Positions 38,181-43,345 of a DNA stretch of 43,652 nt are shown here, piece by piece. Within the stretch, counting starts at the first letter, position 1. The number at the start of each line of letters is the position of its first letter. The stretch lies in the UHGV virus genome UHGV-0201380. The stretch is one strand, 5' to 3'. The stretch is from a virus. The position numbers were made by a program, and so were the translations under genes. The notes below the pieces were generated by a model, which made no database searches, was not told where the DNA came from, and was given only the letters and a program-made list of their open reading frames with translations.

Positions 38181-38381
38181 CTAACATAGTTCAATCTCCC
38201 CCACTACATCCAGCAGAGCATTGTCGTGAATGAGAGAATCCAAATGCTCAACCGTTCTTCGATGTGTTTTGGGTGCTCGTTCACGCAGCGCAACCAGAAT
38301 AGTTTCAAGTTCATCATGTTTCCCCTCGTAGTATAACTCAATCGCCCGCAGGCTCATTTCCTTCGCAGACATCTTCGCCAT
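38181..38381 (-). CDS. Hypothetical small protein
   Basis: Track ORF 38181..38450 overlaps the exonuclease 3' end. An internal ATG at about 38381 (MAKMSAKEM...) follows AGGAG, giving about 66 aa. Confidence 0.4.
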   Translation of the reverse strand: MAKMSAKEMSLRAIELYYEGKHDELETILVALRERAPKTHRRTVEHLDSLIHDNALLDVVGEIELC

Positions 38382-39306
38382 TGTCTGGGTGCTCCTGTAT
38401 CCACTGTATATGCTGTTTATGGTACTCGTGCAGCGAATGCACCCAGTCACGCAGACTGGGAGTAGTCAACAGTGACATCAGATACAGGTACGCTGAATCT
38501 GACGGGGAGCGCCGCAGGAACAGGCATTCTGCCTCTGCGAGTACATCTTGGTTGTTTCGAGCGTAAGCCGCTACAACGAATTCTGCGGCGTCCTGCTCTG
38601 AGGTAATAGGGTAGATAGCATCAAAGGCCGTTCGCTTCCCACAGAGCTTCCCATCAAGCAATGTGATGCCTTTGACGTTATCTGCGTCATCTCCTGCTAG
38701 CATCTGCCACCAGAAGAACTTAGTGCCATGCGCTCGTACCGGCATAGCCTGGGTATCATCCCACTTAATCCATCCGAAGGGGTTATCCAAGGCAGGCCAT
38801 ACGGTTCCGGTTGGGATATCGAACCGGGCCATAGGGCTGAGCCAGGAGTCCTTGTCCTGAGACATCAGGATTCCACGGTCCCCGAAGCTGTACGAATCCA
38901 TTATGAACAGGTCATCCGCCTCGAAGTAGTCACTGCTTACCACTTGTATGCCATGCTCAGAATACTGGTCCGGGTTCTCAATCAGGTGCCGCTTCAACGG
39001 TGCCTTGAGTGGCAGCTCCTGACGCTTATTGCGGTTCCCTTGGTACGGCTTAGCCGTAGGCAGGTGCCAGCGCAGGCACTTAGCACACCCCGTAGGCGTC
39101 AGATACGCCACTGCTTCTGAGCAGCCGACCAGGAACATGTCCTCAAGCACCAGCTGATAGAAGCGGCGTATCGCGGTATCCAAACGTTTCACTGTAGCAG
39201 CAGATTTATAAACTGTGAAATCCGCGTCGTACAGCAGAATCTTCCCAGAGTTCTGCGGAGCTAACTGCTCCCCGAGCTGGGACAAGTCAACCCCGTTGAT
39301 AATCAT
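38338..39306 (-). CDS. 5'-3' exonuclease (FEN-like, T7 gp6-like)
   Basis: 322 aa, with LLYDADFTVYKS near the N-terminus and GDDADNVKGI later, a pattern typical of 5'-3' exonuclease/FEN family proteins. Confidence 0.85.
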   Translation of the reverse strand: MIINGVDLSQLGEQLAPQNSGKILLYDADFTVYKSAATVKRLDTAIRRFYQLVLEDMFLVGCSEAVAYLTPTGCAKCLRWHLPTAKPYQGNRNKRQELPLKAPLKRHLIENPDQYSEHGIQVVSSDYFEADDLFIMDSYSFGDRGILMSQDKDSWLSPMARFDIPTGTVWPALDNPFGWIKWDDTQAMPVRAHGTKFFWWQMLAGDDADNVKGITLLDGKLCGKRTAFDAIYPITSEQDAAEFVVAAYARNNQDVLAEAECLFLRRSPSDSAYLYLMSLLTTPSLRDWVHSLHEYHKQHIQWIQEHPDNGEDVCEGNEPAGD

Positions 39307-39467
39307 CAGACCCCCGTAACCTTCTTGGTCAACTTACGCGCCCAGGATTCCCAGGCGGTCGGCGCCTGACTGTTTTCTACCTTCTCAAATGCCCAGCACA
39401 GGATAGCTACAGGCACTAGCGGGGCTACTAACAGGAAGTAAAATGATTTTGCAAAGAAGTTACGCAT
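39306..39467 (-). CDS. Small predicted membrane protein (below track size cutoff)
   Basis: Hand translation gives about 53 aa (MRNFFAKSFYFLLVAPLVPVAILCWAF...) with one hydrophobic segment. Stop overlaps the exonuclease ATG by 1 nt. Coordinates approximate. Confidence 0.4.
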   Translation of the reverse strand: MRNFFAKSFYFLLVAPLVPVAILCWAFEKVENSQAPTAWESWARKLTKKVTGV

Positions 39468-39470
39468 TCT

Positions 39471-39632
39471 CTACACCTTTAAGTGGTCAGTAAAAGCATG
39501 GATTGCACGGCCCAGCATAGCCACGCCCTTAGAGCCTCCGGCTACACTGAGCGCCAGCGCCATTAGCATCAAGCTGATTGCAAGTAGTACCAGTGCTGGG
39601 ACTGAAATTATGTAGGATATAAATTTACGCAT
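39471..39632 (-). CDS. Small predicted membrane protein (below track size cutoff)
   Basis: Hand translation gives about 53 aa (MRKFISYIISVPALVLLAISLMLMALALSVAG...). ATG overlaps the upstream stop (TAATG) and is preceded by GGAGGG. Coordinates approximate. Confidence 0.4.
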   Translation of the reverse strand: MRKFISYIISVPALVLLAISLMLMALALSVAGGSKGVAMLGRAIHAFTDHLKV

Positions 39633-40006
39633 TATATACCCTCCAGTTCAGATAGCACCAACACGGTGCCAAGCATGTCCCCGATTACTTCCGTGGTACG
39701 CAGGCTCTGGTCTACGTCGTAGATGCAGGAACCAATCTCCGCCAGCCCGATGCTTAGGGTACCCACAATGCGGATAAGCACTAGGTCATCACCCCGTAAC
39801 TTATCGGCATGTGCCGCCAGGTCATTGTGCTCCTTGAAGGCGGTAGCAGCCAACTCCAGGTCCATGCCGTACAGGGCCGCCAGCTTGTCCAGAGCATCGT
39901 ACACAGCGCCGAGCTGGTCACCATTGTCGAAACCTTGAACGGCGCTACAGTTCACGTAACCTACAGCCAGAACCAGTTTCTTGTATGCGTCTAGTACTTT
40001 GTCCAT
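39632..40006 (-). CDS. Hypothetical protein
   Basis: 124-aa ORF in a translationally coupled string of middle genes. Confidence 0.5.
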   Translation of the reverse strand: MDKVLDAYKKLVLAVGYVNCSAVQGFDNGDQLGAVYDALDKLAALYGMDLELAATAFKEHNDLAAHADKLRGDDLVLIRIVGTLSIGLAEIGSCIYDVDQSLRTTEVIGDMLGTVLVLSELEGI

Positions 40007-40284
40007 TAGTCAAATCCTTTCAATTTGTGTTTTGAAATGAAATTGTGGGCTTTGGTCTCAGTGGCCGTAGCCTCTGCACCCAGGGCGTATGCACGGCGTC
40101 GGGACTTGGCGCACTGGCGAGTCAAGTGATAGCGGTGTGCGCTAATCTCGGCACCCAGAAGGCTTGCCCTGTGTGCGTGAGAATTAGCTGCCCGGTGCCA
40201 GTCATTTGCTCGCTTCTGCAAACGCTGTGCACGCAGAAGCAGAAACACAGCGTACTGTTCTTTGGCCCATGTGATTATGCGCAT
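40006..40284 (-). CDS. Hypothetical basic protein
   Basis: 92-aa ORF, Arg/His-rich. Confidence 0.5.
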   Translation of the reverse strand: MRIITWAKEQYAVFLLLRAQRLQKRANDWHRAANSHAHRASLLGAEISAHRYHLTRQCAKSRRRAYALGAEATATETKAHNFISKHKLKGFD

Positions 40285-40539
40285 TTATACCTCCAGGAAG
40301 TTAGCTACTTCATCACGCTTAGCGCGCAGGTTATCAGCATGGCAAGCGCACGCCTCGGCTAACTCTTTGCTATGCTTGGATGCCTCTACGCGCGCCTCGG
40401 ATTGAGCGGCCAGACGCACTGCGTCGTCTGCGAATTTAACTGACAACTGCTCGTTAAACTGCGCTTTGGCATCGGCGCGTTTAGCTTCTGCTGTGTAGGC
40501 TGCGCTCAGGAGTTTGATGAGAATCTTGATGATGTTCAT
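40285..40539 (-). CDS. Hypothetical protein
   Basis: 84-aa ORF, Ala/Lys/Glu-rich and probably helical. Preceded by a GC hairpin and a GAGGAAG Shine-Dalgarno. Confidence 0.5.
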   Translation of the reverse strand: MNIIKILIKLLSAAYTAEAKRADAKAQFNEQLSVKFADDAVRLAAQSEARVEASKHSKELAEACACHADNLRAKRDEVANFLEV

Positions 40540-40548
40540 AGGCTTCCT

Positions 40549-40567
40549 CTAAGGCCCCTAGGAGGGG
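40549..40567 (-). promoter_or_regulatory. Intergenic GC-rich hairpin (possible RNA processing or stability element)
   Basis: Minus strand GGCCCCT-CCT-AGGGGCC: 7-bp perfect stem with 3-nt loop, between the 262-aa gene stop and the next Shine-Dalgarno. No U-tract, so not a canonical terminator. Confidence 0.3.
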
Positions 40568-40592
40568 CCGTATTAGTTTAGGTTAGGGTTGA

Positions 40593-41381
40593 TTAGGCTT
40601 GAGGTGCGGCGGGTGCTGCTGGCGCCACAGGGGCTGCAGGGGCCACTGGTGCAGCCGGGGCTGCGGGTGCCTGCATAGCTGCCGGACTAGGAACCGAGCC
40701 AGCGTTCAGCAGAATATCCAGAGCACTGCCAGGGAAGTCTACAGCCTTGTACATATCCTCCTGAATCCAGTTCTTGCTCTTACCATCGTCGAAGGTGCCT
40801 TCGATGTGCAGGCTATCCCAGGTCTCTTTGGTTGGGTTGTTCCACAGGAACAGCTTAATCTCAGAGGCATCCATGGCAGGCATCTTGATAGGCTCGCCAG
40901 TGTTCGGGTCGAATTTCGGAATCGGGCGGATACCGGACAGGTCCACGATGTTGGACTTCTTGCCCGCGGCGCTGGTGTGCTCATCAATCGGGAAGGTGAA
41001 GGCCTGGCCCAGACGCTGTGCTGCATGCTTAATGCTATTGTCGTAGTTGAGCTTGTCGAAGAACTTCTTGAAGCCTGCGCGCTCAAAGTTACTGATAGCC
41101 ATCGGGAACGGGCGGATACGCTTCACTTCGCCGTTAGGACCGAACACTACAATGCCGATGCGTACGTTAGCTACTGCGGGCTTACCGGTCGGCTTGCCAC
41201 CCTTAGTCGGCAGGCGCTTACCGATTTCTACGTACTCGGTGAAGTAGCCGTAGTATTCACCCTTCGGCAGCAGCACGTCCTCATATGCGCCGCCCTGTGC
41301 GGTTTCCCGCATATCTACATCTTGGGTTCCGATTGCTGCGTCTACCAGAGCGTTCAGGGATGCCAATACATTCGTAGTCAT
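40593..41381 (-). CDS. Hypothetical protein with Pro/Ala-repeat C-terminal tail
   Basis: 262 aa; C-terminus PAAMQAPAAPAAPVAPAAPVAPAAPAAPQA is low-complexity. Lys/Gly-rich central region. No catalytic motif recognised. Confidence 0.55.
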   Translation of the reverse strand: MTTNVLASLNALVDAAIGTQDVDMRETAQGGAYEDVLLPKGEYYGYFTEYVEIGKRLPTKGGKPTGKPAVANVRIGIVVFGPNGEVKRIRPFPMAISNFERAGFKKFFDKLNYDNSIKHAAQRLGQAFTFPIDEHTSAAGKKSNIVDLSGIRPIPKFDPNTGEPIKMPAMDASEIKLFLWNNPTKETWDSLHIEGTFDDGKSKNWIQEDMYKAVDFPGSALDILLNAGSVPSPAAMQAPAAPAAPVAPAAPVAPAAPAAPQA

Positions 41382-41402: not shown

Positions 41403-41972
41403 TTAAATGATATTTACGTGCAGATGCAGGGCTATGCGTTTGCACAGTCCTACGAAGTCATCGTGGTGCATGTCAGACTTCATATAGTTGCAGGTAGGGC
41501 AGCATGGCACACAGTTGTCTAAATGGTACCCAATGCGTGAATCCTTCCGGTCTATCCCGTTAGTGGGTACTGTGGATTTACGCGCCCATCTCCCACTGCC
41601 GAGTTCCCGGTAGGTACTGGGTGGCGCGCCGCAGTAATAACAATCTGCGCTTACTAAGGCCTTGGCGTCTTCCTTAGTAATACTCCTACCTAACTTAGTG
41701 CTAAAGGCCCATACCTTATTCGCCGATACTGTTAAGTCGTCCAGCTTATTAGGCGGAGTTCGTCCAGTATTCTTCTCACTTTGCCTGAGTTTAGTTTGAC
41801 ATCCGCAGTGACCAAGGCCGCCGCGCTTACTGGTATTGAATAGCTTAGTGCGTATCGCCTCAAACTCCTCGCCACAGTAAGGGCAGTCCCAGGTATAAAC
41901 AACCATACCGCGGAATCTCTTTCCTGTATCAGTCTTTGGTTTTATCTCTTGCACACCACCTTCCGGAATCAT
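41403..41972 (-). CDS. Zinc-finger protein with degenerate HNH-like nuclease motif
   Basis: Track ORF starts at TTG 41975, with an ATG at about 41972; an alternative ATG at about 41906 avoids overlap with the phosphoesterase gene. CPYCGEEF and HCGCQ Cys pairs; C-terminal NGIDRKDSRIGYHLDNCVPCCPTCNYMK resembles an HNH core with His replaced. Confidence 0.45.
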   Translation of the reverse strand: MIPEGGVQEIKPKTDTGKRFRGMVVYTWDCPYCGEEFEAIRTKLFNTSKRGGLGHCGCQTKLRQSEKNTGRTPPNKLDDLTVSANKVWAFSTKLGRSITKEDAKALVSADCYYCGAPPSTYRELGSGRWARKSTVPTNGIDRKDSRIGYHLDNCVPCCPTCNYMKSDMHHDDFVGLCKRIALHLHVNII

Positions 41973-42918
41973 CAAGCAGCATCGGGATTAACTGCGGACA
42001 GCCCTCGGTGATTACCATCACACCCAGGATTGGTTTCTTGCGGGTGAGTCTGCCGTAAGCAAAGGCCATGCTCTTACGGTCAATCAGACACCCAGCATAC
42101 GCACCAAAGTACAAAGCTGTTGAGCTAGCTGCATATTGCACCTCAAAGCGACCATGTTCGTGACCAAGGACAAGGCTGGTTCTTTCGTGGCTAGCGTTGA
42201 GCATGAAGTCACCCGACACTTGATGCTGGAATCTAACCGGGCCAAGTGGGGTATTGAGTACCCATGCGTCAGCCCAAGACCACGCCGGGGCACCATGCTC
42301 AGGGAAAAGTATATCTCGGTACTTCTTGATGAATTGCACTGGTAGCCCGTGAGCTTTCGCCCTGCGGTAAACCAGACTGCCGTGATTGGAATCGCAAACC
42401 AGTAGGTTCGGGAATAGTTCATGCAGCTCCTCCAGTACGAGCTTGGCTTTCTCCAGCTCCACCCCGGCGCTATCTAGGTTCGGGTTACTTTCGTGGAATG
42501 ATATAGCGTGGCCGTCCGTCTCGTCGCCTACCTGTACAACCATGTCCGGACAGTAGGCGTCTCGCACAGATTCTAAGAAGGCCATAGCATCTACGTGCGT
42601 ATAGGGGGCATGCAAATCCCCAACTACGAGAATACGGTGGCACACTTCCGGCACGAAGGTTTTGCCGATGTCATCAGTGGGACTGGGCTGTATGAGCTTT
42701 AGTGCCTCCTTCATGTGGGATATTGCCTTACCCTTGCTCCCAGCGTGGTCTAGGAATATGCTGCGCCAGTACTTCACCATCTGTCGATACACCACTGGCT
42801 CGTCCAGTCCCGCCAGATTATTATAGGCGGCAGCAGCATCCACGTTAGAGCTGTGCTTGCTCAAGATATCTATGTGTTGCTCTTTGGTGAATAGCTTTAT
42901 TGTGTTTAACTTAGGCAT
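41929..42918 (-). CDS. Calcineurin-like metallophosphoesterase (Ser/Thr protein phosphatase / phosphodiesterase superfamily)
   Basis: 329 aa with the ordered motifs VVGDLHAPY (GDxH), VQVGDETDGH (GDxxD), CDSNHGS (GNH[DE]-like) and LGHEHGRF (GH-x-H). Substrate cannot be assigned. Confidence 0.8.
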   Translation of the reverse strand: MPKLNTIKLFTKEQHIDILSKHSSNVDAAAAYNNLAGLDEPVVYRQMVKYWRSIFLDHAGSKGKAISHMKEALKLIQPSPTDDIGKTFVPEVCHRILVVGDLHAPYTHVDAMAFLESVRDAYCPDMVVQVGDETDGHAISFHESNPNLDSAGVELEKAKLVLEELHELFPNLLVCDSNHGSLVYRRAKAHGLPVQFIKKYRDILFPEHGAPAWSWADAWVLNTPLGPVRFQHQVSGDFMLNASHERTSLVLGHEHGRFEVQYAASSTALYFGAYAGCLIDRKSMAFAYGRLTRKKPILGVMVITEGCPQLIPMLLDDSGRWCARDKTKD

Positions 42919-43345
42919 TCCAGCTCCTGTTACTTATTACGTCACTAATTACATGTACACCTACACCGTACTTATTAGCAAAGTGTTGCCGCATACCTTT
43001 CTTGTATGGGATATAGTTATCCCTGATATCCTGCACAGCATCCCAAGTTAACTGCGCTTTTGGGTTCCTATCCCCACGCACATCTGGGTTCCTTCCGCGC
43101 TCTGCACGGTCCCGCATATTATCCATATGCGTTCCCAATACTAAGTGCTTAGGGTTAATGCACCTGGGGTTATCGCAGGTATGTCTAACAGACAGGCCAG
43201 CCAGCGCCCTTATATCCAGCCCGTTATGCTCAGCATACACCACCCGATGCAGCAGCTCCAATCGCCTGGTCGGCTTATACCATGCCCGGCGGTATCCGTT
43301 CTTGTTAAGGCATTTGTTATACCCGTGGTCAATACACATCGACAT
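42911..43345 (-). CDS. HNH homing endonuclease
   Basis: 144 aa with HRVVYAEHNG ... HTCDNPRCINPKHLVLGTHMDNM. Overlaps the phosphoesterase start by 8 nt. Confidence 0.85.
   Translation of the reverse strand: MSMCIDHGYNKCLNKNGYRRAWYKPTRRLELLHRVVYAEHNGLDIRALAGLSVRHTCDNPRCINPKHLVLGTHMDNMRDRAERGRNPDVRGDRNPKAQLTWDAVQDIRDNYIPYKKGMRQHFANKYGVGVHVISDVISNRSWNA

Follow-up and report, generated by a model that had tools for sequence, protein, structure and literature searches.

Two very short open reading frames lying directly upstream of a phage exonuclease gene raise the questions of whether they are genes at all, whether their expression is tied to that of the exonuclease, and what their products might do in the host membrane. 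The window, by which we mean the whole stretch analysed (43,652 nucleotides, UHGV-0201380), is the genome of a KP34-like Klebsiella podophage, a Drulisvirus, and its genes lie on the minus strand. The region shares 98.5% identity with the Klebsiella phage RCIP0106, and almost all of its 259 matching records are Klebsiella phages; those examined for taxonomy are placed in Autographiviridae, Slopekvirinae, Drulisvirus. An earlier note on this DNA had described two ORFs of roughly 53 aa, and both were found, on the minus strand, started by ATG and 53 aa long. Very probably these two ORFs, here called orfA and orfB, belong to the DNA-metabolism (middle) gene block of the phage. The features of the locus, in order along the minus strand, are as follows.

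39632..40006, minus strand: 124-aa gene, upstream neighbour (phrog_6607 match, E=2.5e-64; dN/dS 0.15)
39639..39644, minus strand: GGAGGG, Shine-Dalgarno sequence of orfA, 6 nt before its ATG and within the last codons of the 124-aa gene (..LEG..)
39630..39634, minus strand: TAATG, stop of the 124-aa gene over the start of orfA, a junction type that recurs in related loci carrying orfA
39471..39632, minus strand: orfA, MRKFISYIISVPALVLLAISLMLMALALSVAGGSKGVAMLGRAIHAFTDHLKV, 53 aa, ATG start, predicted accessory small membrane protein
39468..39479, minus strand: orfA/orfB junction, made up of the AAGGTG Shine-Dalgarno sequence (39474-39479), the TAG stop (39471-39473) and an AGA spacer (39468-39470)
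39306..39467, minus strand: orfB, MRNFFAKSFYFLLVAPLVPVAILCWAFEKVENSQAPTAWESWARKLTKKVTGV, 53 aa, ATG start, predicted near-core small membrane protein
39304..39308, minus strand: TGATG, stop of orfB over the start of the exonuclease gene, as read from the sequence
38338..39306, minus strand: 5'-3' exonuclease gene, 322 aa, downstream neighbour (phrog_107 match, E=2.5e-70), called 5'-3' exonuclease in relatives as well (dN/dS 0.07)

Both frames could in principle be open by chance, in spacer DNA that separates real genes. Chance ORFs of similar size are abundant, the six frames of the window holding 139 ATG-initiated ORFs of at least 53 aa. Such an origin is opposed, however, by purifying selection and codon usage that are specific to the frame, by the presence of Shine-Dalgarno sites, by the gap-free fit of both ORFs among genes of the same strand, and by a hydrophobicity that is exceptional for small ORFs of the window. 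Codon-usage log-odds are positive in the annotated frame only, at 0.14 for orfA and 0.24 for orfB, and range from -0.14 to -1.5 in the other five frames. orfA has a median dN/dS of 0.17 and orfB one of 0.32, with off-frame pN/pS controls at 0.7-2.0; inside each of the two orfB allele types pN/pS is 0.21-0.24. By these substitution patterns both genes are under purifying selection, and in the annotated frame only. Family lengths hold steady at 51-55 aa without internal indels, length and frame are kept among relatives down to 38-50% identity, and the frequent frameshifts or stop codons expected of chance frames were not seen in relatives. The earlier note had proposed conservation in related phages as a check, and the conserved reading frames, the purifying selection and the full-length PHROG matches bear the two ORFs out: orfA aligns with phrog_17815 (E=1.2e-32) and orfB with phrog_7652 (E=1.2e-29), in each case residues 1-53 on profile positions 1-53 of 53. 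We consider it extremely improbable that these are chance frames, an explanation already effectively refuted. It is very likely that orfA and orfB are real, mutually unrelated protein-coding genes and that their products are 53-residue bitopic membrane proteins.

Both genes are already known, having been called in GenBank and grouped in PHROGs. Their annotated members include RCIP0036_00033, CPT_Pone_028, CPT_Pone_030, fHeKpn01_gp30, SU552A gp26 and gp28, and JKP2 ORF32 and ORF34. The PHROG and GenBank members match over the full length (53/53 positions, E=1e-29 to 1e-32) and occupy the same genomic position as orfA and orfB; orfA is 100% identical to hypothetical proteins of the RCIP0036, RCIP0044 and RCIP0106 phages, and orfB 98%. 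The Pone, JKP2 and RCIP0106 records call both genes hypothetical or putative membrane proteins, and the curated Pone record carries a membrane-protein annotation on both homologs. The window differs in residue 36 of orfB, which is Pro here and Leu in 24/24 aligned relatives, and in lacking a 65-aa gene that stands between orfA and orfB in many relatives. Nothing of substance separates the two genes from their known relatives, and with annotations already in place across many related phages the finding, though correct, is an ordinary one.

The two genes were said to be in tandem, which is true of their position and not of their ancestry: they are adjacent, and comparison by sequence or profile gives no paralogy. 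Duplication was rejected as the origin of the pair, BLASTP yielding no alignment at E<=100 and hhalign a probability of 8% over 11 columns. Searches of Pfam, NCBIfam and PADLOC with both proteins returned no family match, save one chance 12-bit match, and no PDB relatives of either emerged from a sequence-profile search. For orfB, an exhaustive profile search of 1.84 billion cluster representatives recovered only 4 real representatives, all of them 51-55 aa long. A 649-aa repeat protein (P0027) returned by profile search was set aside as a spurious match.

We are confident that orfB is restricted to the genus Drulisvirus, where it is nearly core, and that orfA is accessory. Among 65 related loci, orfB is present in 63 and orfA in 15. 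Roughly one in four to one in three relatives carries orfA, which appears in 78 phage records; the two orfB allele types appear in 83 and 165. A variable cassette slot of small genes holds orfA and/or a gene for a 65-aa soluble protein, and orfB adjoins the exonuclease gene, downstream of these accessory genes, in every locus that carries it. The divergent contigs L074 and L076, whose exonuclease is only 65% identical, show the same arrangement, with orfB directly upstream of the exonuclease gene and overlapping it. In distant loci with a homologous exonuclease (L066-L069 and L072; 46-53% identity) no orfB-like gene was found upstream of it, the position being taken by a 77-aa protein without TM character or by a 262-aa-type gene. 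The two orfB allele types are deeply diverged and reassort with the flanking genes, each being found with all cassette architectures. Pooled pN is 0.30 for orfB and 0.03 for the exonuclease. At a single locus, L057, the ORF from ATG to stop is 14 codons shorter at its 5' end, the lone anomaly among the loci.

The earlier note had further described the two ORFs as chained into the exonuclease gene by overlapping stop and start codons. Both outer links of this chain are present, TAATG between the 124-aa gene and orfA and TGATG between orfB and the exonuclease gene; the link between orfA and orfB is instead a 3-nt gap without overlap. Initiation of orfB is served by the AAGGTG sequence 6 nt before its ATG, and both Shine-Dalgarno sites fall within the final codons of the gene before. 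The form taken by the orfA/orfB junction in the window recurs in 3 related loci only, and the orfB/exonuclease junction is TAATG, TGATG or TAGTG in 57 of 63 related loci. Such packing is widespread in these phages. The curated relative Pone has overlaps at 24 of its 55 gene junctions, 11 of them by exactly 1 nt, and a gap of at most 2 nt at 9 further junctions, which brings overlap or abutment to 33/55. The stop/start overlaps of orfA and orfB are real but usual in a Drulisvirus genome, and nothing special. Abutting and overlapping gene ends of this kind would favour the hand-over of ribosomes along the gene block.

Whether orfB is translationally coupled to the exonuclease in particular is a narrower matter. 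Head-to-tail packing and the TGATG overlap agree with the coupling that had been claimed; the claim is weakened by 6 of the 63 related loci, in which orfB and the exonuclease gene are parted by an insertion of 414-486 nt. In JKP2 this insertion is an HNH (homing-endonuclease) gene. Because the insertion separates the two genes in these loci, coupling of orfB specifically to the exonuclease is not obligatory. We looked for RNA structure that might enforce coupling and found local folds that were non-significant (z-scores +0.36, -0.59 and -1.25), and a hairpin over the orfA Shine-Dalgarno sequence and AUG that is present in the window is not kept in relatives. Counts of promoters and terminators that might mark the small genes as a separate unit were the same as in shuffled sequence.

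The membrane character ascribed to the two products is clearer. Each ORF has the single hydrophobic segment that had been described, with best 19-residue Kyte-Doolittle windows of 2.67 (orfA) and 2.27 (orfB); only 3 of the 99 ATG-initiated ORFs of 40-80 aa in the six frames of the window reach 2.2 or more, and two of these are orfA and orfB. Transmembrane prediction, which the earlier note had suggested, is in agreement, giving one TMHMM helix for each JKP2 homolog and AlphaFold models with a TM helix and an amphipathic helix. In the JKP2 table ORF32 and ORF34 have one TMHMM helix each and no SignalP entry (PMC10194101 supplement). The orfA model (pLDDT 84) has helices at residues 2-32 and 34-52, predicting a TM helix some 30 residues long followed by a GG break; the C-terminal helix beyond is amphipathic, its hydrophobic moment of 0.52 lying in the top 0.3% of shuffles. 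The orfB model (pLDDT 82), with helices at 2-14, 17-32 and 35-51, predicts a Pro-kinked TM helix followed by a Trp-rich amphipathic C-terminal helix; this last helix is basic. Both proteins are thus predicted to share a plan of short basic N-terminus, TM helix of about 25-30 residues, short break and amphipathic helix of 17-19 residues, the last of which presumably lies along the surface of the membrane. Basic residues counted on the two flanks give conflicting answers from one allele type to the other, and since both flanks are net positive in part of the family the positive-inside rule gives no orientation. A lipoprotein, of the type of the T5 Llp exclusion protein or an o-spanin, was considered and rejected: the lipobox [LVI][ASTVI][GAS]C is absent, Leu standing at -1 before Cys24. 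The residues up to this conserved Cys24 read A-I-L-C or A-G-L-C, and Val or Ser replaces the Cys in several members.

These features would also admit other assignments. The N-terminus of orfA might be a cleavable Sec signal, cut at A-L-A (residues 25-27) to release a 26-residue amphipathic peptide into the periplasm; the annotators of Pone labelled their orfA homolog a 'putative secreted protein', and in the aligned family members the hydrophobic stretch is followed by a small-x-small motif, which is ALA except in one relative with ALS. The stretch itself, however, runs to about 21-27 residues, a length more in keeping with a TM anchor than with a signal h-region, the JKP2 table gives the orfA homolog ORF32 one TMHMM helix and no SignalP signal, and the same Pone note also cites TMHMM for a 'potential transmembrane protein'. 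We regard secretion as quite unlikely. Less likely still is that one or both proteins set the time of lysis, as the earlier note had suggested, by acting as a holin, a pinholin-like protein or an antiholin. Small holins and antiholins, such as T7 gp17.5 and the Drulisvirus class II holin, resemble orfA and orfB in their small size, single TM segment and charged C-terminus, a likeness of size and shape only; there is no sequence similarity, and orfA and orfB lie outside the lysis cassette, in the earlier DNA-metabolism block. In Pone that cassette (u-spanin, class II holin and SAR endolysin) is at 41.0-42.3 kb and the small genes are at 16.1-16.6 kb, and in JKP2 it is likewise annotated in the late region. 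Moreover, orfA is missing from about 70% of relatives, which lyse normally. The orfB homolog fHe-Kpn01 gp30 was non-toxic in E. coli, with relative CFU of 1.03 +/- 0.21, far above the cut-off of 0.4, in a screen that used E. coli rather than Klebsiella, crude ligation mixes and orfB type II only (PMC7291057 supplement). The non-toxicity of this homolog, and a late-region lysis cassette some 25 kb distant, speak against the suggested part in lysis timing.

The position of orfB invites yet another reading, in which orfB, made together with the exonuclease, would anchor that enzyme, or the machinery of replication or host-DNA degradation, at the inner membrane. orfB adjoins the exonuclease gene everywhere, its stop overlaps the exonuclease start in 57/63 loci and in the most divergent members, it is near-core, and its C-terminal helix is basic. 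The adjacency says little about function, however, because gene order is wholly collinear across the whole module. Such a tether also has to accommodate the 414-486-nt insertion tolerated in 6/63 loci (the HNH gene in JKP2), the distant phages that have a homologous exonuclease (46-53% identity) and no orfB-like gene upstream of it, and a non-synonymous divergence of orfB about ten times that of the exonuclease, with no sign of co-variation. Known systems offer partial parallels. The phi29 protein p16.7, encoded among early replication genes, is a membrane anchor for phage DNA replication with an N-terminal TM helix, as in orfB; it has about 130 aa and a folded DNA-binding domain, whereas the extramembrane part of orfB comprises only about 20 residues, and no similarity between the two was detected. 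T7 gp5.9, a 52-aa acidic, soluble RecBCD inhibitor encoded immediately upstream of the gene 6 exonuclease, is a positional analogue: it too has about 52 codons and lies directly before a 5'-3' exonuclease, among small host-interaction genes. Unlike gp5.9, orfB is hydrophobic, basic and predicted to be embedded in the membrane, and the two have no sequence relationship. A tether of this kind appears improbable.

The reading we prefer is that orfA and orfB act in conflict at the level of the membrane, and even this we hold only tentatively, as a possibility with the odds against it; superinfection exclusion, as the earlier note had proposed, or any other membrane-level conflict role is a guess. 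In the middle phase of infection both proteins would take their place in the inner membrane of the host and act there as non-lethal modulators of conflict rather than as factors of lysis or its timing. They might block the entry of DNA from competing phages or neutralise a membrane-associated host function. The pointers that we count in favour are the fast evolution of orfB, the occurrence of its allele types across architectures, the presence/absence polymorphism of orfA, the non-toxicity of the orfB homolog, the failure to detect that homolog in virions, and the location of the lysis cassette elsewhere. Against these, a 53-aa TM protein may diverge strongly simply because a helix that faces lipid is weakly constrained, and a housekeeping function in the phage cycle would likewise suit a near-core orfB. 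Searches of Pfam, PADLOC and NCBIfam showed no similarity to known exclusion, anti-defence or defence families. The literature on Drulisvirus transcriptomics, core and accessory genes, T7-like small membrane proteins and exclusion yielded no functional study, and what turned up for these families in Drulisvirus was the fHe-Kpn01 toxicity screen together with routine TMHMM tables, and nothing else.

Precedent for such a role comes from outside the T7-type phages, among which we know of no such exclusion factor. T4 Imm and Sp are small phage-encoded inner-membrane exclusion proteins, made before the late phase and non-lethal to the cell, and the non-toxicity of the orfB homolog fits this pattern. 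Both T4 proteins are larger than orfA and orfB, which match no Pfam or NCBIfam family. It is tempting to imagine orfB as a Drulisvirus-specific effector of the middle phase that either bars the DNA of competing phages or recruits nuclease or replication functions to the membrane, with orfA as a second, horizontally exchanged effector. This fuller scenario is a long shot; if it were true, the two ancient orfB allele types would be the mark of an arms race still under way.

In its present state the finding is of little consequence and holds nothing surprising for the specialist. Drulisvirus phages are, however, widely used candidates for Klebsiella phage therapy, and because of this use the role of the near-core orfB would help to judge interference between phages in cocktails. 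Its relevance for cocktails would be greatest if orfB turned out to cause exclusion or to interact with the envelope of the host. The variable cassette slot, in which orfA, the 65-aa gene and HNH genes come and go, offers a convenient natural experiment on such interference.

The region of the window that holds the two small ORFs, orfA and orfB (38300-40600), shares 98.5% identity with Klebsiella phage RCIP0106 and matches 259 phage records, nearly all of them Klebsiella phages. The matching records whose classification we examined belong to Autographiviridae, Slopekvirinae, Drulisvirus, and are KP34-like phages. The local genes run as follows.

Genes around orfA and orfB, in order of transcription
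40593-41381, minus strand: 262-aa gene (phrog_862)
between the 262-aa gene and orfA, minus strand: genes of 84, 92 and 124 aa, in that order
39471-39632, minus strand: orfA, 53 codons, ATG start
39306-39467, minus strand: orfB, 53 codons, ATG start
38338-39306, minus strand: 5'-3' exonuclease gene, directly after orfB
downstream of the exonuclease gene: a small gene, then the endonuclease VII gene

Because the window contains 139 ATG-initiated ORFs of at least 53 aa in its six frames, ORF length says little, and we therefore tested coding status directly. Both ORFs match a PHROG family of the 'unknown function' category over their full length (orfA, phrog_17815, E=1.2e-32; orfB, phrog_7652, E=1.2e-29). 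Under a codon-usage model whose training set was the window's 17 long genes, the log-odds are positive in the annotated frame only (orfA 0.14, orfB 0.24, compared with 0.23 for the exonuclease and 0.16 for the 92-aa gene) and negative in the five other frames. For comparison among relatives, the exonuclease served as query and recovered 69 related loci from viral metagenomes; with the window and three GenBank loci added, both flanking genes were present in 65. The reading frames are conserved: median dN/dS from codon alignments is 0.17 for orfA and 0.32 for orfB (exonuclease 0.07, 124-aa gene 0.15), the two shifted frames give a pooled pN/pS of 0.7-2.0, and family lengths hold steady at 51-55 aa, free of internal indels. 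The PHROG matches, codon usage, dN/dS and constant length together establish that orfA and orfB are genes.

They are also already known, since PHROG families exist, homologs are annotated and deposited proteins match orfA at 100% identity. Homologs are labelled hypothetical proteins in RCIP0106, SU552A and fHe-Kpn01. The curated record of phage Pone names the orfA homolog a 'putative secreted protein / TMHMM potential transmembrane protein' and the orfB homolog a 'putative membrane protein', with an annotated ribosome-binding site for each.

The prediction of small membrane proteins with a single hydrophobic segment, made from the sequence alone, is supported. Each protein has one strongly hydrophobic stretch (best 19-residue Kyte-Doolittle window 2.67 in orfA, 2.27 in orfB); only three of the 99 six-frame ATG-ORFs of 40-80 aa in the window reach 2.2, and orfA and orfB are two of them. 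The homologs in phage JKP2, ORF32 and ORF34, have one TMHMM helix each and no SignalP entry (PMC10194101). AlphaFold models built on family alignments are helical, with helices at 2-32 and 34-52 separated at a conserved GG in orfA (pLDDT 84), and at 2-14, 17-32 (kinked at conserved P16) and 35-51 in orfB (pLDDT 82). The C-terminal helices are strongly amphipathic (hydrophobic moment 0.50-0.67, top 0.3-1.1% of shuffles), and that of orfB carries conserved Trp residues at periodic spacing. Basic residues flank the transmembrane segment on both sides in a balance that differs between allele types, leaving the orientation ambiguous. We rejected a lipoprotein lipobox for orfB, whose conserved Cys lies outside a lipobox and is replaced in some members, and a paralogous origin of the pair (no BLASTP match; hhalign probability 8%). 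Residue 36 of orfB, which caps the C-terminal helix at its N-terminal end, is Pro in the window (39360-39362) and Leu in 24 of 24 aligned relatives; the Pro may reflect a sequencing error or a variant private to the window.

The earlier note had described the two ORFs as chained by stop/start overlaps into the exonuclease gene. Overlaps do occur at the outer junctions, where the TAA of the 124-aa gene shares bases with the orfA ATG (TAATG, 39634-39630) and the TGA of orfB with the exonuclease ATG (TGATG, 39308-39304); orfA and orfB themselves, however, are separated by a 3-nt gap (TAG-AGA-ATG). Shine-Dalgarno sequences lie 6 nt upstream of each ATG (GGAGGG for orfA, AAGGTG for orfB). These overlaps are real, and the one between the orfB stop and the exonuclease start recurs in 57 of 63 loci, but the genome as a whole is packed in this way: Pone has overlaps at 24 of its 55 junctions (a single base in 11 cases) and a gap of at most 2 nt at a further 9. 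Moreover, coupling specifically to the exonuclease is dispensable, since 6 of the 63 loci, with longer versions of the slot, carry a 414-486-nt insertion between the two genes; in JKP2 the insertion at this position is an HNH endonuclease gene (PMC10194101). Local RNA folds at the three junctions were not significant, a hairpin that spans the orfA start site in the window lacks conservation in relatives, and no promoter-like or terminator-like signals exceeded shuffled expectation.

In the window (39304-39325, 39468-39479, 39633-39644) and in related loci, the Shine-Dalgarno sequence of the next gene is encoded by the last codons of the preceding one. The C-terminus is ...LE(I/G), coded CTGGAG, in the 124-aa protein, in the 65-aa protein of related loci and in many orfA proteins; in orfB it is ...TG(V/R), coded ACnGGGGG or GGGAGG. 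This double duty probably explains part of the C-terminal conservation, and the sequences common to these junctions might also serve as microhomology when cassettes are swapped.

Further observations concern the neighbouring genes. The small downstream gene at 38181-38450 (minus strand) overlaps the 3' end of the exonuclease gene (38338-39306, minus strand) by 113 nt in its longest ORF and by 44 nt in the shorter 204-nt version annotated in relatives. The 262-aa protein, whose family phrog_862 is also in the 'unknown function' category, has a C-terminal Pro/Ala repeat tail, PAAPAAPVAPAAPVAPAAPAAPQA, and is variously named 'large tegument protein', 'single strand DNA binding protein' or 'structural protein' among relatives. 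The 53-nt gap between its gene and the 84-aa gene, the sole sizeable intergenic gap nearby, holds a perfect GC-rich hairpin (coding strand GGCCCCTCCTAGGGGCC, 40553-40569) that may act in RNA processing or as an attenuator. A 190-aa endonuclease gene (41403-41975, minus strand; phrog_1035, E=1.5e-26; no Pfam match) sits between the metallophosphoesterase and 262-aa genes. In the nearest relative, RCIP0106, this position is occupied by a gene for a hydrophobic protein of 55 aa (locus L002, 4634-4801); a search of the window with a 29-base stretch of that gene, allowing up to 3 mismatches, gave no match. A further mobile endonuclease gene of the DNA-metabolism block, encoding an HNH_3-type homing endonuclease of 144 aa (42911-43345, minus strand; PF13392, E=2e-9), is located upstream of the metallophosphoesterase gene.

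A variable slot of 157-936 nt, filled with small genes, separates the 124-aa gene from the exonuclease gene. It contains orfB only in 33 of the 65 loci, a 65-aa soluble-protein gene and orfB in 15, orfA, the 65-aa gene and orfB in 12, and orfA and orfB in 3, among them the window, whose slot lacks the 65-aa gene. OrfA is an accessory gene, carried by 15 of the 65 loci and present in 78 phage records. OrfB is present in 63 of the 65. When 1.84 billion representative proteins were searched exhaustively with its profile, only four true representatives emerged, all of 51-55 aa. On the contigs of two divergent ones the gene again immediately precedes and overlaps an exonuclease gene, which shares 65% or 89% identity with the window's. 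Phages with an exonuclease 46-53% identical have no orfB-like gene. OrfB is therefore a genus-restricted, near-core gene. It falls into two deep allele types, type I (MLYVSR...KWAERW; 165 phage records by tblastn) and type II (MRNFFAK...AWESWARKL; 83 records, and the window), which together roughly cover the 259 matching records. Between types pN is 0.52 and pS 0.64, while inside each type pN is 0.08-0.10 and pN/pS 0.21-0.24. Each type is found in all slot architectures and beside both allele groups of the 124-aa gene, a sign that the genes often recombine at their boundaries.

Literature searches yielded only two items relevant to function, the JKP2 TMHMM/SignalP tables and a toxicity screen of 22 hypothetical proteins of fHe-Kpn01 in E. 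coli, in which gp30, the orfB homolog, was non-toxic (relative CFU 1.03 +/- 0.21) and was not detected in virions (PMC7291057 supplement). The earlier note had proposed superinfection exclusion or lysis timing. The latter is disfavoured: the u-spanin, class II holin and SAR endolysin of Pone form a lysis cassette some 25 kb away in the late region, which makes a holin or antiholin role unlikely and any part in lysis very improbable. A membrane tether for the exonuclease or replication is also improbable, if less so; the conserved overlap joins orfB to the exonuclease gene, and six loci separate them. That orfA is a cleaved secreted peptide, in line with the first half of its Pone label, is likewise very unlikely. 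The reading that fits best is a membrane-level conflict function, because these would be middle-phase, non-lethal, non-virion membrane proteins with fast divergence, allelic replacement and presence/absence polymorphism of orfA. We tentatively suggest that they may exclude competing phage DNA or neutralise a membrane-associated host function.
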